DNA of 60,397 nt. Origin: Patescibacteria group bacterium. Its GTDB lineage: Bacteria; Patescibacteriota; Patescibacteriia; Patescibacteriales; UBA12465. Location of the stretch: assembly GCA_041650715.1 (NCBI GenBank), contig JBAZKQ010000003.1, forward strand, positions 1-60,397. Reading direction: 5' to 3'. The position numbers were made by a program, and so were the translations under genes. Below the pieces are notes generated by a model. The model was not told the DNA's origin. It saw nothing but the letters and a program-made list of their open reading frames with translations, and did not search any database. Positions 708 to 15,565 of this stretch are shown piece by piece. Within the stretch, counting starts at the first letter, position 1. Each line of letters begins with the position of its first letter.

Positions 708-1544
708 ATGAGTTCAAAATTTGCGGCCAATTTTGGGGAAACAAATTACCCGGGCAAGATTCAAGAGCTAAAAGCGGAGAAAGAGGAAAAGAAGAAGGAA
801 TTTGTCAGAAATGAGCAACCATTTGATGATAATGCAATAAATGCCGCCGAAAGACTAAATCCAATTGATCCTGAGAATAGATATAATAGTGCGGCGGCCG
901 AAGAGCAAATTATAGAATCCGCAAAAAAATTCAAAACGGCCGAAGATGTAGTTGACGAGGATCAGGATGAAAATTCGATTATTAATGCCGTTGATGAAAA
1001 GATTAGTCTGGAAAAGGCGAGCCTGGCTATAAGTGATCCTTATGACTATGCGGATGTAATTGAGAAATTGTTCCTGTCGGCCCAAGCCAAGGGTGATAAA
1101 AAGGAAATGGATGATATTCTTGATCGGACTTCCCTCTTTATAAAACAGTATCAAAAATTATTAGGGCGCAAGCTCGACAGTGAGGAAGAAAAAGATAGAG
1201 TTGAAGCCATGTTTAAAGAAATAGTTGGTGAGGTCGCCTATATAAAAGAAGGAGACGCGCAGAGGACGGAGCTTTTATCAGATTTTAGGGAGCCAAGAAA
1301 TGCGCGCCCCGGGCAAGATAAAGGCAGTAAAATCTACTACGCTGCCAATGATAAGGTGGGTAGAGGATTTTTAACACAGGCCGAGGCTGATCGTGATGCC
1401 GCCGCCCGGGCGGAAAAAAACAAAAATAAAGGCAATATCAATAATAAAAAAACATCAGTGATTTCAGGTTTGGCTCAGGAATTAAAGGCATTCAACCCTT
1501 TTACTGGCAAAAAAGAAAGCATTAATAATAGAAGGGTTAATTAA
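708..1544 (+). CDS. Hypothetical protein, charged (E/K/D-rich), no recognisable domain
   Basis: 278-aa ORF filling the gap between rrs and infC. No family motif recognised. Confidence 0.55.
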   Translation: MSSKFAANFGETNYPGKIQELKAEKEEKKKEFVRNEQPFDDNAINAAERLNPIDPENRYNSAAAEEQIIESAKKFKTAEDVVDEDQDENSIINAVDEKISLEKASLAISDPYDYADVIEKLFLSAQAKGDKKEMDDILDRTSLFIKQYQKLLGRKLDSEEEKDRVEAMFKEIVGEVAYIKEGDAQRTELLSDFREPRNARPGQDKGSKIYYAANDKVGRGFLTQAEADRDAAARAEKNKNKGNINNKKTSVISGLAQELKAFNPFTGKKESINNRRVN

Positions 1545-2982: not shown

Positions 2983-4758
2983 GTGATCTCACTAAAAAAG
3001 AAAACAAAGTTAAATGCAAAAAGGGCGAGTCAGGTCTTGTCTTTTTTTGGTTTAGCCAAAAAAAATAAATTAAATCAAGCTGAGATTGATCGTAAATTAG
3101 TCTATACCCTGTCGGCTCGGAAAATACCCAATGGTGGCCAAATCAGACATCTTAATAAATTTTTAAATCCGAAAGAAAACTTGATAATTAAAATTTGCGC
3201 TCTTTTTATTCTGGTTAATGCTGTTTATTTGGGAATTACTTTTTTTCAAAAACATTTACAGTATGCCCCGGTTGCCGGCGGTGAATATATAGAGGGTATA
3301 GTGGGGTACCCTAAAATTGTTAATCCGCTTTACGCGGTAAATCGTGATGTCGATAGCGACCTCAGCAGTCTTGTCTATTCCAGCCTTTTTAAATATGATC
3401 AAAGCGGTGCCTTGGTTAATGACTTGGCAGAGACAGTATCCATCAGTAATGATAAAGAGTATACGATTAAGATTAAGGACGGTGCGGTTTGGCAAAATGG
3501 CGATAAGTTAACGGTTGATGATATTATCTTTACCATTAGTGCGATTCAAAATGCGGACTACCATTCTCCGCTGCGCGCGTCTTTAAGCAGCGTTGAAACT
3601 GCCAAGATAGATGAGCAAACTTTAAAAATTACGCTGGGGGCTCCCTATGCACCTTTTCTTGAGGTCTTAACTTTCGGTATTCTTCCGAAAAATATTTGGG
3701 AAAATGTTAATCCCAGTTCAGTGGCTTCTTCCGATATGAATTTAAAGCCGATCGGGTCGGGACAGTATAAGTTTAAATCATTCCTCAAAAATAAAGACGG
3801 TGATATCAAAGAGTACAATTTGGTATTTAATAATTCTTATTACGGACGAAAACCATTTATCAGTGCCGTAAAATTTAAATTTTTTAACGATTACACAGAA
3901 GCGACCAAAGCCTTAAATGATAATCAAATTGATGGCTTGGGTTATTTGCCTTTTGATGAGCGCAAAGATTTGGTGGCGAAAAATGCATTAACGTTTAATG
4001 AATTATTGCGCCCACAAATCGTTGCCCTTTTCTTTAATAGTGGTAATGATAAGGCGCTCGCGGATAAAACAGTTCGTGTTTCCTTGGCGCAAGCGATAGA
4101 TAAAGATCAAATCATTAAAGATGTTTTTTCCGATGTCTATAAGAGAGCGGATGGACCGATTTTGTCTACCAGCTATGCCTACGACGATGCAATCGCCAAG
4201 TATGCTTATTCGCCACTTGAAGCCGAAACAAATATCAAAAATAAATTGGCCTCGACTACCCTCACGGTGATTGATTCGGGTACAAACGTGGCTGTGGCGG
4301 AAGCCGTTAAAGCGTATTGGGAAAAAATTGGCGTCGCCGTTGAAATTAAAGTAGTCCCTGGAGAACAGGCAGCCGATATTATTAAAAATCGCGCTTTCGA
4401 AATTCTTCTTTACGGCGAATCAGTCGGCGGCGATCCGGATGTTTATGCTTTTTGGCACTCCTCTCAGATCGGCGCTAAAGGCTTGAATCTCGCCAGCTAT
4501 AATAATCAGGAGGTTGATAAGTTACTCGCGGATGCGCGCGCCACAACCGATATTGCAACTCGCATTGAAAAATATAAAAAATTTCAGGAAGATGTCGTGA
4601 ACGACGTTCCCGCTATCTTTCTATATTCACCAACCTATACTTACGTGCAGAGCAAAAAACTCAAAGGCTTTAATGGTTCAATGGTAATTGAACCGGACAA
4701 TCGCTTCGCAAGTATTGCCGATTGGTATTTAAAGACCAGTAAAAAATTAGTGTGGTAA
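2983..4758 (+). CDS. ABC-type substrate-binding protein, family 5 (peptide/nickel type), N-terminally membrane-anchored
   Basis: 591 aa with an N-terminal TM segment. SBP_bac_5-like stretches (LFKYDQSGALVNDLAE, YTIKIKDGAVWQNGDKLTVDDIIFT). GTG start. Confidence 0.75.
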   Translation: MISLKKKTKLNAKRASQVLSFFGLAKKNKLNQAEIDRKLVYTLSARKIPNGGQIRHLNKFLNPKENLIIKICALFILVNAVYLGITFFQKHLQYAPVAGGEYIEGIVGYPKIVNPLYAVNRDVDSDLSSLVYSSLFKYDQSGALVNDLAETVSISNDKEYTIKIKDGAVWQNGDKLTVDDIIFTISAIQNADYHSPLRASLSSVETAKIDEQTLKITLGAPYAPFLEVLTFGILPKNIWENVNPSSVASSDMNLKPIGSGQYKFKSFLKNKDGDIKEYNLVFNNSYYGRKPFISAVKFKFFNDYTEATKALNDNQIDGLGYLPFDERKDLVAKNALTFNELLRPQIVALFFNSGNDKALADKTVRVSLAQAIDKDQIIKDVFSDVYKRADGPILSTSYAYDDAIAKYAYSPLEAETNIKNKLASTTLTVIDSGTNVAVAEAVKAYWEKIGVAVEIKVVPGEQAADIIKNRAFEILLYGESVGGDPDVYAFWHSSQIGAKGLNLASYNNQEVDKLLADARATTDIATRIEKYKKFQEDVVNDVPAIFLYSPTYTYVQSKKLKGFNGSMVIEPDNRFASIADWYLKTSKKLVW

Positions 4759-8468: not shown

Positions 8469-8496
8469 TTGACATACACGCTGATTTAGCTATAAT
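8469..8496 (+). promoter_or_regulatory. Consensus promoter upstream of tRNA-Ala
   Basis: TTGACA (8469-8474), 16-nt spacer, TATAAT (8491-8496). Confidence 0.6.
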
Positions 8497-8638: not shown

Positions 8639-8677
8639 CAATATAAAAGCCCCACAAAGTGGGGCTTTTATATTGTG
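8637..8677. terminator. Long-stem hairpin terminator overlapping the tRNA-Ala 3' end
   Basis: Perfect 19-bp stem CACAATATAAAAGCCCCAC / GTGGGGCTTTTATATTGTG with an AAA loop. Confidence 0.75.
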
Positions 8678-8681
8678 CTTT

Positions 8682-8847
8682 GGGGACTTGAACTGGTTGG
8701 AAGCGAGATGCGAGTCGAGTCGGAAGACGAGACGAGCTATCGAGCGTCGGACAACCCGCCGGGGGCGGGTTGGACGCCAACCCTGGACGAGCGAAGCCGC
8801 CGCGCTTCTGGCGGCGGCAAGCGAGAGAGTCCCTTATGGTCCACAAT
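8682..8847 (+). repeat. tRNA-Ala-derived cassette A: inverted T-arm copy, GC-rich core, direct copy of tRNA 3' end
   Basis: GGGACTTGAAC (8683-8693) is the reverse complement of the tRNA T-loop/stem. 8828-8847 is an exact 20-nt copy of tRNA 8623-8642. The core between them is GC-rich with nested hairpins and GCGAG repeats. Confidence 0.7.
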
Positions 8848-8883
8848 TTAAAAGACCTCACCTGCGTGAGGTCTTTTAAATTG
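8844..8883. terminator. Second long-stem hairpin terminator (paralog of 8637-8677)
   Basis: Perfect 18-bp stem CAATTTAAAAGACCTCAC / GTGAGGTCTTTTAAATTG with a CTGC loop. Confidence 0.7.
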
Positions 8884-8894
8884 ATTGATTTGAA

Positions 8895-9015
8895 ATAAGG
8901 GACTTGAATGCCGGAGGCGATGCGCACTTGTGCGCCGCCGAGGCCGGGTCGGGGCGCTTAGTGAGCGCAGTTCGCGATTTTAGCGAACAAGCGAGACTTA
9001 GCGACCGTGACCAAG
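8895..9015 (+). repeat. tRNA-Ala-derived cassette B: inverted T-arm copy plus second GC-rich core
   Basis: ATAAGGGACTTGAA (8895-8908) is the reverse complement of tRNA 8619-8632. It is followed by GC-rich hairpins (TGCGCA-CTTG-TGCGC, GCGC-TTAGTGA-GCGC, GTTCGC-GATTTTA-GCGAAC) ending in CAAGCGAGA, as in core A. Confidence 0.65.
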
Positions 9016-14288: not shown

Positions 14289-14993
14289 ATGATTTCAATT
14301 ATAATCCCAACTTTAAACGAGGAACATTATTTACCCTTGCTGTTAGAGGCAATCAAAAAACAAAAATTTTCCGACTATGAGATTATTGTTTCCGACGGCG
14401 GCTCAAAAGATAACACCCAAGCGATTGCGCGCGACTATGGTTGTCGTTTTGTTAGCGACACGGAACACCATCATCCCGCGTGGCAAAGAAATAATGGCGC
14501 GGCAGTCGCCCAGGGAGACGTGTTGGTTTTTTTGGATGCCGATACAATGTTACAAGCCGATTTCTTGGAAAAAGTGATCGCGGAATTTTATGAGCGAAAA
14601 TTGAGTGGCGCTGGTTTTTACATAAAATTTAATCCTAATCGTCCCGCTTATAATATTTACTCGTTTTTATATAATATTTTTTGCTACCCCCGACAATTTT
14701 TTGCGCCCGCCTCAATCGGAGCCGGTATTGTTGCGCGCCGTGAAGCGCACGAAGCAATCAAGGGCTTTGATACTGGGCTTTTCTTGGCGGAGGATTATGA
14801 TTACTGCTATCGCTTATCCCGCTTGGGAAAATTTCGGATGATAAAATCTTGCCGACTGCTATATTCATCGCGGCGGCTTCTAAAAGAGGGCGCGTTGAAA
14901 GTGGGTTTAAAATGGGGACTGATGGCCGTCTATACGTTATTTAATTTTCGTATTAAAAAAAGTATTGTAAAATATGATTTTGGAAAATTTTAA
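14289..14993 (+). CDS. Glycosyltransferase family 2
   Basis: ISIIIPTLNEE...VSDGGSKDNT...FLDADT (DxD). Confidence 0.85.
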   Translation: MISIIIPTLNEEHYLPLLLEAIKKQKFSDYEIIVSDGGSKDNTQAIARDYGCRFVSDTEHHHPAWQRNNGAAVAQGDVLVFLDADTMLQADFLEKVIAEFYERKLSGAGFYIKFNPNRPAYNIYSFLYNIFCYPRQFFAPASIGAGIVARREAHEAIKGFDTGLFLAEDYDYCYRLSRLGKFRMIKSCRLLYSSRRLLKEGALKVGLKWGLMAVYTLFNFRIKKSIVKYDFGKF

Positions 14994-15396
14994 AATAAAA
15001 AAGTTCCGCGCGGAACCGACGGAAATTTTACGCTTGTTTTTGGCCGTCGTTTTTTTGTCGGCTGGGATTTTTCGAATTTTTAATCCTGGTGCGGCGACGG
15101 AAGAATTCTCCGCTTTGCGTTTGCCCTTATTTTTAGCACCTTTAATGATTATATTTGAAATTATCGCCGGTTTATTACTGCTTTTTAATCGTTTCACGAA
15201 ACAAGTTTATTATGGCTTGATCATGTTTATGATTATCGTCCTGGGCTGGTCCTTTATACTTAGCGGCGGAACTTTAATCAGAGAGGCCGGCGAACTATTC
15301 GTTTTTAATTTAAATCCGACTGATTTCTTTTTGCATTTTGTATTTTTAATCATAGCTATAGTTTTATTAATTAGGATGAAACAAAGTAGAGGGTAA
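14974..15396 (+). CDS. DoxX-family membrane protein
   Basis: 140 aa, 4 TM segments, LRLFLAVVFLSAGIFRIFNP is a DoxX-like N-terminus. Confidence 0.55.
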   Translation: MILENFKIKKFRAEPTEILRLFLAVVFLSAGIFRIFNPGAATEEFSALRLPLFLAPLMIIFEIIAGLLLLFNRFTKQVYYGLIMFMIIVLGWSFILSGGTLIREAGELFVFNLNPTDFFLHFVFLIIAIVLLIRMKQSRG

Positions 15397-15493
15397 GGGG
15401 AATTCCGCCTCACTCGCTCGCCGTCTGTCCGATTCCCCTTCATAGTCTTGTCAAAATAAAAAGAACAAGCTTTCGCTTGCCCTTTTTATTTTG
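15391..15493 (-). repeat. tRNA-Gly-derived cassette: long-stem terminator, inverted T-arm copy, GC-rich core, direct copy of tRNA 3' end
   Basis: Hairpin 15452-15493 (19-bp stem, 2 G-U pairs) abuts the tRNA 3' end. 15427-15440 is an exact 14-nt inverted copy of tRNA 15501-15514. 15391-15403 is an exact 13-nt direct copy of 15497-15509. The GC-rich core has GCGAG repeats. Confidence 0.65.
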
Positions 15494-15565
15494 AGCGGGT
15501 AAGGGGAATCGGACCCCTCTCATAAGGTTGGAAACCTTAGGTAATAACCACTATACGATACCCGC
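15494..15565 (-). tRNA. tRNA-Gly (anticodon TCC)
   Basis: 72-nt cloverleaf: acceptor GCGGGTA/TACCCGC, anticodon loop TTTCCAA, T-arm AGGGG-TCCGATT-CCCCT. Confidence 0.85.

Follow-up and report, generated by a model that had tools for sequence, protein, structure and literature searches.

A probable relic of a structured and apparently mobile RNA element behind a tRNA-Gly gene of a Patescibacteria bacterium

What is the short GC-rich segment behind the tRNA-Gly(TCC) gene in a 60,397-nt stretch of contig JBAZKQ010000003.1 (Patescibacteria group bacterium, assembly GCA_041650715.1), and why does it lie between two copies, one inverted and one direct, of the 3' part of that same tRNA? The whole stretch is called the window here, all coordinates are those of the window, and L-numbers denote loci of relatives or metagenomes. 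A sequence-only reading had described the segment as a cassette built from tRNA-Gly sequence, similar in architecture to two cassettes behind a tRNA-Ala gene, and had attributed the likeness to a shared process rather than to one dispersed repeat. Comparison with relatives leads to a different answer: positions 15388-15494 very probably represent a dead, internally deleted relic of a structured, tRNA-trailing family, which is referred to below as the Gly unit. The features of this locus are as follows.

15493-15565, minus strand: tRNA-Gly(TCC), the intact host gene (ARAGORN; 56.5 bits with the Rfam tRNA model; sequence identical to the tRNA-Gly of L203)
15451-15494, minus strand: A/T-flanked hairpin directly 3' of the tRNA (arms 15451-15470 and 15475-15494, 20 nt, 90% complementary, 4-nt loop)
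15441-15450, minus strand: 10-nt spacer CAAGACTATG between hairpin and inverted repeat (direct reading of the sequence)
15427-15440, minus strand: inverted repeat AAGGGGAATCGGAC, an exact 14-nt inverted match to 15501-15514 and the reverse complement of tRNA-Gly positions 53-66
15404-15426, minus strand: residual core of 23 nt, AGACGGCGAGCGAGTGAGGCGGA in tRNA sense
15388-15403, minus strand: direct repeat ATTCCCCTTACCCTCT, a copy of tRNA positions 58-73, 15 of 16 nt identical (G71 replaced by T)
14974-15396, plus strand: DoxX-family open reading frame (ORF), from the ORF list (Pfam DoxX recorded on an identical product)

Hairpin, inverted copy, core, and direct copy all lie where the sequence-only reading had placed them. 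The direct copy is exact over 13 nt (15391-15403 versus 15497-15509) and 94% identical over 16 nt (15388-15403 versus 15494-15509). Its overlap with the DoxX stop codon is also borne out: the ORF at 14974-15396 terminates within the direct repeat, and AGA GGG TAA (15388-15396) forms its final two codons and stop. The inverted repeat begins 52 nt past the tRNA end and covers G53, the T-loop, the T-stem 3' strand, and U66; its 3' end, CGGAC, corresponds to T-loop bases that are not in the direct repeat. The hairpin at 15451-15494 looks like a bidirectional terminator. The tRNA-Gly (T-arm at 15501-15514) and the tRNA-His of L086 share the T-loop TCCGATT, in which C takes the place of the nearly universal U (pseudouridine) at position 55; the T-loop of tRNA-Ala(GGC) is TTCAAGT.

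Chance was controlled with 5000 shuffles of the 150 nt downstream of tRNA-Gly and with ~4000 random genomic windows. Neither set gave a single 13-nt direct or 14-nt inverted match (maximum, 12 in the shuffles and 11 in the genomic windows), and the shuffles rule out chance or a terminator artefact as the source of the matches. The other tRNAs of the window, those that have no cassette, had been counted as nine, each followed only by a long hairpin terminator. There are eight, with longest matches of 5-9 nt to their own 500-nt flanks, and the hairpin does not follow all of them: tRNA-Arg(CCT), tRNA-Leu(GAG), and tRNA-Ser(CGA) precede a promoter region or another tRNA.

A covariance model, R1 (171 model positions), was built from the units of relatives. 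Two pattern scans of a genome collection together with R1 gave ~70 copies, and type-B copies came from a metagenome scan using the 5' end of the Gly core. In all, Falkowbacteria and related Patescibacteria yielded ~90 copies with a common five-helix fold; the tRNAs that precede them comprise at least 18 species and include Glu, Gly, His, Trp, Gln, Ser, Ala, Val, Arg, Asn, and Cys isoacceptors. Flanks specific to the neighboring tRNA, as noted for the window, hold across these tRNA species. Read in tRNA sense, a full unit consists of a terminator-like hairpin, a spacer (9-16 nt in relatives), an inverted repeat of tRNA positions 53-63/67, a GC-rich core of ~150 nt, and a direct repeat of positions 58-73. 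It measures ~190 bp from inverted to direct repeat and ~250 bp with hairpin and spacer, and the folded RNA would comprise ~170 nt. About 45 copies lie 37-64 nt behind a tRNA, all of them co-oriented.

In relatives, the inverted repeat corresponds to tRNA positions 53-63 read as the reverse complement; its usual length is 11 nt, its maximum 15 nt. Nearly all copies have a direct repeat that begins at A58 and extends to the discriminator, so that the inverted repeat crosses the 57|58 junction, where the direct repeat has its start. That part of the inverted repeat which is complementary to 53-57 is partnerless within the unit, yet it tracks unusual T-loops (TCCG with CGGA in 4/4 cases, TTCA with TGAA in 4/4). 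The A57-type inverted repeat follows one core lineage, represented by the first tRNA-Ala unit of the window (Ala1), L172, L186, and L189.

An RNAalifold consensus of 12 units contains 40 pairs, 31 with compensatory changes, arranged in five helices. The inverted and direct repeats pair as P1; the long-range helix P2 encloses P3 and P4, with P5 coming after. P3, long and closed off by a CGGAAG loop, consists of two Watson-Crick pairs at a time in alternation with tandem G-A; P4 is a hairpin that varies, and P5 is a second G-A-punctuated hairpin. This alternation accounts for the "GCGAG repeats" to which the sequence-only reading had drawn attention. P2 reads GGTTGG/CCAACC in type A and, as a compensatory version, GACGG/CCGTC in type B, a second subfamily found mostly behind tRNA-Glu(TTC). 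Among the 71 copies found by R1, from which the fold statistics were taken, 91.9% of cells pair, compared with 34-39% when the partner is slid, and 37 of 40 pairs change on both sides (0/500 shuffles as high as the observed values), in alignments that were fitted to R1 and hence are biased towards its structure; the slid-partner controls and a first model-free alignment lead in the same direction. G-U combinations outnumber A-C combinations (129 versus 41) and one U-G is conserved, which argues that the folded strand is the tRNA-sense strand. The units thus appear to specify a structured RNA on that strand.

No Rfam 15 family was found at or near the gathering threshold; scans of the window, L006, and L205, by gathering threshold and by E-value, gave tRNA, 16S rRNA, and chance microRNA-like hairpins. 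The literature searched (full text) contained no description of this RNA or element either, and the family is apparently undescribed and a candidate new RNA family. A hammerhead-like arrangement in some cores (CUGAGG...GGAA...CGAAGG) was rejected by eye, the motif not being kept across members, and coding potential of ORFs across the cores was likewise discarded, RNA-type covariation accounting for the conservation. The spacer of many Glu- and His-type units contains, immediately 5' of the inverted repeat, a GC hairpin of 5 bp whose loop is GNRA-like (e.g., CCGAC GCTA GTCGG; L086, L125, L105, L147, L137, L090, L143, and L155). The 5' end of the functional RNA may lie upstream of the inverted repeat.

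How does the Gly unit relate to this family? With filters off, R1 spans it end to end (19.2 bits, E = 1.8e-6 in a 161-nt search), 130 of the 171 model positions being replaced by 17 nt. Its inverted repeat is the 5' strand of the closing helix P1, and its direct repeat provides the 3' strand of P1 and an acceptor-3'-strand tail. Two full-length references were aligned to it, L203 at tRNA-Gly and L206 at tRNA-Glu. L203, a metagenome locus, has the same tRNA-Leu(TAG)...tRNA-Gly(TCC) neighborhood, the identical tRNA-Gly, and a full-length type-B unit (80.5 bits with R1) whose 17-nt direct repeat is perfect; a second terminator is also present. Against L203, the match covers the inverted repeat together with 14 nt at the 5' end of the core; a gap of ~127 nt follows, and then the last 8 nt and the direct repeat match. 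The residual core thus consists of AGACGGCGAGCGAG (5' end, with the 5' strand of P2), a T, and GAGGCGGA (3' end), both sequences being identical in L203 and L208. Because of this alignment to a full-length syntenic unit, the "GC core" of the Gly locus is best read as the leftover of an internal deletion, and the unit was not built from tRNA-Gly sequence but is an internally deleted copy of a dispersed family.

The Gly unit shows the position, the inverted repeat, the A58-start direct repeat, and the core-end homology of a family member. With 23 nt of core left it is unable to form P2-P5, and for this reason we class it as a deleted relic and not as a functional member. The remnant folds no more stably than its shuffles (z = -0.11). 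The distal terminator present in L203 is gone from the window copy; in L203, the second terminator and ~55 nt lie between the direct repeat and the DoxX gene, while in the window the direct repeat overlaps DoxX. Parts of the same relic are found in L002 and L070, so the insertion may be older than the split of the window, L002, and L070 lineages.

The two tRNA-Ala cassettes, with which the Gly unit does share its architecture, are the other units in the window.

8678-8846, plus strand: Ala1, full-length type-A unit behind tRNA-Ala(GGC) (R1, 151 bits, E = 9e-39)
8683-8693, 8694-8827, and 8828-8847, plus strand: inverted repeat, core, and direct repeat of Ala1 (repeat search)
8895-9015, plus strand: Ala2, distal second unit, with the inverted repeat ATAAGGGACTTGAA (14-nt T-arm copy) at 8895-8908

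The 20-nt direct repeat of Ala1 runs on into a diverged copy of the tRNA terminator, and the cores of tRNA-Gly units in relatives align with Ala1. An alignment of the three GC cores of the window through R1 succeeds in part: Ala1 aligns strongly, the Gly core aligns with filters off, and the Ala2 core gives no match. The claim that no dispersed repeat is involved has to be given up, since the cores are homologous members of one structured family, as the score of Ala1 illustrates. The GC-rich core of Ala2 is of another kind or decayed, and a direct repeat is not clearly recognizable; Ala2 may be a separate short subfamily. Its segment 8913-8993 reaches 5-25x the local contig depth in three metagenomes, i.e., it is multi-copy, and other copies of it continue into a tRNA-Ser-type direct repeat. 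In run X3, a contig from another landfill metagenome joins 8639 to 8992, so that the tRNA-Ala end passes into sequence like the 3' part of the Ala2 core and 352 nt are skipped; the probable source of this junction is another genome, in which the unit is shorter.

Other unusual copies were seen among the relatives. Several Glu-type units without a tRNA carry a conserved block of ~75 nt (CCTAAAATTTCCGCCCATTTC...TTTAGGACTAC) directly upstream of the hairpin (L120 at 4603-4680 and 2189-2265, L143, L117 at ~4603-4680, L205, L208, and L215). The last 6-7 nt of this block equal the tRNA-Glu end, and its variation resembles synonymous change in an antisense frame. As a tRNA or an Rfam family the block was rejected, no tRNA and no Rfam hit being found, and a small antisense ORF was unconvincing. 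L165 contains two 100% identical copies (226-400 versus 1056-1230, minus strand) ~670 nt apart, the second of which lies behind an ORF of ~128 amino acids, begins in the T-run past the hairpin, and stops where the direct repeat does.

Are the units mobile? The evidence is circumstantial and comparative, and it makes mobility of the family likely. The window derives from a landfill metagenome. The major facilitator superfamily (MFS) gene next to the Gly locus has relatives in "Candidatus Falkowbacteria" and other Patescibacteria metagenome-assembled genomes, which allowed 42 orthologous loci (MFS, then tRNA-Gly(TCC)) to be compared. Both empty and occupied sites exist: 35 loci have the hairpin only, and 7 have a unit or remnant. 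Three of these (L005, L006, and L026) hold GC-rich units of 150-170 nt with an inverted T-arm copy and a direct tRNA-end copy, L025 holds a full-length unit without a direct repeat, L076 has a 56-nt core with the same framing repeats, and L052 and L070 keep remnants only.

Near-identical cores (94-100%) occur at different tRNAs or sites. In one genome, L124 at tRNA-Ser(GCT) and L179 at tRNA-Ser(TGA) have hairpin, spacer, inverted repeat, and core in common at 94% identity; L148 and L155 are 98% identical, and L085 and L089 are 89-94% identical. Between genomes, the cores of L180 (Gly-GCC) and L191 (Ser-GGA) are 94% identical, with unrelated hairpins and direct repeats. A common hairpin is found in copies with different left flanks (L124/L179/L193 and L085/L089/L194), and in several lineages the hairpin travels with the element. 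In tandem arrays, the tRNA-proximal unit is usually intact and the distal one decayed (Ala1/Ala2 of the window, L026, L081, L117, and L079), L184 being an exception.

The direct repeats carry information on the exchange itself. The one in L148 has the T-stem of a foreign tRNA-His allele, and the one in L092 is a hybrid of Ser and Glu, which suggests that the left part of the direct repeat (58-65) arrives with the element; the exchange would then occur within the acceptor 3' strand or beside it. At tRNA-Glu, mismatches in the inverted repeat of type B are inherited across copies. Together, the L148 and L092 alleles and the inherited mismatches favor flanks that are borne by the element over flanks copied from the target. 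The block of direct repeat, hairpin, spacer, and inverted repeat on the one hand and the core on the other appear to be exchanged as modules.

Several results weigh against a structured, mobile element. No excised circle, empty-site read, or strain polymorphism was observed in assembler contigs; contigs placed on the locus gave no excision form and indicated that part of Ala2 is multi-copy, and an exact look-up of the DoxX protein for strain variants returned the source sample alone. No recombinase/integrase, transposase, or reverse-transcriptase domain was found by Pfam in 27 large ORFs of the window. An all-against-all BLAST of 355 ORFs within 3.5 kb of ~70 copies gave no recurrent ORF, only syntenic housekeeping genes. 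The family's units are not uniform, some having no direct repeat (L083/L025, the second unit of L084, and Ala2), and the core of Ala2 gives no match to R1. Several left flanks classed as "non-tRNA" resemble decayed tRNA 3' parts, which weakens the case for use of secondary insertion sites, and the second copy of L165 has no hairpin. Exchange in the acceptor strand explains neither the invariant start at A58 nor the complementarity of the inverted repeat to 53-57. As to the RNA, its expression, strand, and ends are deduced from covariation, and the fitting of the alignments to R1 counts on the same side.

With these points taken into account, we still consider it likely that the Gly unit is the relic of a structured, mobile, protein-gene-less, tRNA-trailing element; the steps by which such an element might move are held with less confidence than either the relic or the mobility. 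The unit would be a selfish, non-autonomous integrative element that recombines with the tRNA gene within the 58-73 identity segment, in the manner of classical tRNA-targeting islands; the hybrid direct repeats would put the crossover at the acceptor 3' strand, inside it or adjoining it. Insertion directly behind the tRNA would supply a new terminator hairpin and displace the old tRNA end and any older units downstream. The RNA gene would be transcribed by read-through from the strong tRNA promoter, and the recombining enzyme would act in trans. The inverted repeat is complementary to one T-arm strand of the tRNA gene, and the direct repeat is identical to that strand and can pair with the other; the two repeats would be the best candidates for a target-recognition module. 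Because one family serves at least 18 tRNAs with differing acceptor stems, specificity is most likely set by nucleic-acid pairing of these repeats. As for transcription, the tRNA-Ala gene has a perfect sigma-70 consensus (TTGACA, 16 nt, TATAAT; 8469-8496, plus strand), the tRNA-Gly gene has a 9/12 match (15615-15587, minus strand), and upstream of the window cassettes there is no match to a sigma-70-type consensus, which makes co-transcription of the unit with its tRNA likely. Word matches from RNA runs cover only 18% of words, probably the tRNA part, and a search for RNA runs of L203 returned none.

A more specific version of this reading, which we regard as tentative and on balance doubtful, is an RNA-only mobile gene whose folded transcript of ~170 nt picks the target, in analogy to IS110 bridge RNAs or the homing of group II introns. 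The sense strand at 53-63/67 would be bound by the transcript's 5' inverted repeat and the antisense strand at 58-73 by its 3' direct repeat, P1 opening into two RNA-DNA hybrids that straddle 57|58; a DNA copy, or the RNA itself via cDNA, would then be placed behind the tRNA, with strand transfer by a host or trans-acting recombinase or by the RNA as a ribozyme. Such RNA guidance or catalysis would give a function to the bases complementary to 53-57, which lack a partner in the element and nonetheless follow the unusual T-loops, and would agree with the A58 start, by which the flanks straddle one fixed junction, with the tie between the A57-type inverted repeat and a single core lineage, with the retention of both flanks in deletion derivatives, and with the lack of any protein encoded in cis. 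A precedent exists in an sRNA-only selfish module moved by an IS110 transposase (PMC12288879). The 355 neighboring ORFs and the 27 window ORFs include, however, no recombinase of the DEDD, tyrosine, or serine type with a link to the element, Rfam gives no match to intron or other ribozyme families, and the flanks pair with each other, unlike bridge-RNA guides, which sit in an internal loop. An internal guide for the acceptor end was rejected, as no core segment covaries with the acceptor sequence (a k-mer test of own core versus other cores showed no enrichment). A retro-element appears improbable. In that scheme, an RNA intermediate is cut by tRNA-type 3' processing into a trailer from just past the discriminator to past the discriminator-like end of the direct repeat, reverse-transcribed, and re-inserted via its tRNA-like ends. 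The ends of the moved unit do coincide with tRNA 3'-processing positions (left directly after the tRNA, right 0-2 nt past the direct repeat), the second copy of L165 is bounded like a processed transcript, and co-transcription with the tRNA is likely; but no reverse transcriptase lies near any copy, the direct repeats often run into genomic trailer or terminator and not CCA (L081, L084, L105, and L087), poly(A)-like tails and 5' truncation series are missing, and the strong hairpin with its T-run within the unit should stop transcription.

A quite different explanation is that the units do not move at all and are a host-serving RNA acting in cis to tRNAs, in processing, quality control, or regulation, which is inherited vertically, duplicated in tandem, and lost by deletion, with flanks kept matched by selection for RNA-RNA pairing. 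The strong conservation of the RNA structure, the constant co-oriented position directly behind the tRNA, and an inverted repeat that is complementary to the neighboring tRNA's T-arm all fit such a role. They have to be set against the patchy occurrence at orthologous loci (7/42), the near-identical cores at different tRNAs and non-tRNA sites within and between genomes, the direct-repeat alleles of L148 and L092 that mismatch the resident tRNA, the frequency of decayed copies such as the Gly unit, and copy numbers that differ between genomes, and we judge a purely resident RNA to be a poor prospect. Still further from the data is a conventional scar, in which the repeats are the attL/attR remnant of an integrase-bearing island or prophage once resident in tRNA-Gly. 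A direct repeat of the tRNA 3' end is typical of tRNA-integrating islands, as with P4-like integrases and the Yersinia high-pathogenicity island at asn tRNA, and the 16-17 nt repeat seen here is that classical signature. Yet ~90 copies have the same ~190-bp content and none has an integrase, the DNA between the repeats specifies a conserved folded RNA and not arm-type binding sites, and the family was not found in IMG/VR viral contigs, so that a scar of this kind is extremely unlikely. A phage origin was also tried and rejected: the conserved pattern gave four IMG/VR hits, none of them a true member.

A mobile, non-autonomous element behind tRNAs remains our preferred reading. Its strong covariation and strict link to tRNAs make the family a ready candidate for an RNA family. 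If it is mobile, as the comparative data suggest, it would be among the smallest integrative elements known, and its host-matched flanks at many tRNAs would mean that site specificity is possibly achieved by nucleic-acid pairing and not by a protein, which would be relevant to bridge-RNA and omega-RNA-type systems and to genome-writing tools. Were the RNA-only version true, bacteria with minimal genomes would harbor a protein-gene-less, RNA-programmed integrative element. For annotation, GC islands behind tRNAs in these AT-rich genomes should be regarded as copies or relics of the element and not as coding sequence. Relics can also be recruited by their neighbors, as here, where one has supplied the DoxX stop codon. 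At the other end of the window, the 5' part of a 16S rRNA gene, cut by the window start, occupies 1-345 on the minus strand.

Among known systems, the units resemble tRNA-integrating islands and their cis-mobilizable (CIME-type) or P4-like forms, with a 16-20 bp repeat, in their insertion at the tRNA 3' end, in a direct repeat that runs from T-loop to discriminator, in leaving the tRNA intact, and in accreting in tandem at one tRNA; like the small derivatives of such islands, they have no recombinase. Unlike those islands, a unit measures only ~250 bp at full length (~110 bp here), contains nothing but a conserved folded RNA, and has an extra inverted T-arm copy. No tyrosine or serine integrase was found in the ORFs searched, nor was an autonomous parent found, and the use of at least 18 tRNA species by one family is not predicted by a protein-determined att specificity.

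MITEs and the Correia, ERIC, and REP/BIME repeats are likewise small, protein-less, and multi-copy, with hairpin-forming termini, internal deletions, and a location at gene 3' ends. The present termini differ in matching the host tRNA, and with it they vary, so that family-wide fixed terminal inverted repeats are not seen; nor is there a short fixed target-site duplication, and a five-helix RNA covariation sets the units apart. A pair of conserved subterminal hairpins of the kind that TnpA recognizes at the two ends of palindrome-associated transposable elements (PATEs) of IS200/IS605 was not seen either, the left hairpins being unrelated between close copies. With the homing of group I and II introns, the units share an inverted repeat that pairs contiguously with both sides of 57|58, and the order of its two parts, 3'-side match before 5'-side match, is that of a group I internal guide sequence. 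In introns, however, the host gene is interrupted, and here the tRNA is not; omega-G, GUGYG, and domain V are missing, the ~150-nt core is smaller than known self-splicing introns, and Rfam gave no intron hit up to E = 10, only chance microRNA-like hairpins.

The bridge RNA or seekRNA of IS110 elements and the ssr9 RNA offer a closer parallel, namely a structured RNA of ~150-200 nt on a mobile unit, with complementarity to both target strands. The units differ from IS110: the guide-like segments are terminal and paired with each other rather than placed in internal loops, the shared repeat is 16-17 nt and not a 2-nt core, and no similarity was found in sequence or by Rfam. The internal loops of the core are conserved and G-A-rich, with no core segment matching acceptor sequence, and no DEDD (RuvC-like) recombinase gene adjoins the copies or occurs among the window ORFs tested. 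The module ssr9 is a selfish sRNA moved in trans by the IS110 transposase of ISPpu9 (PMC12288879), and it demonstrates that an RNA-only module can spread when its transposase is supplied in trans (PMC12288879). In behavior, the family is closest to non-autonomous tRNA-integrating elements and to the ssr9 module (PMC12288879), and we would place it as a group of tRNA-targeting, non-autonomous elements with a new structured RNA, of which the Gly unit is a non-functional relic.

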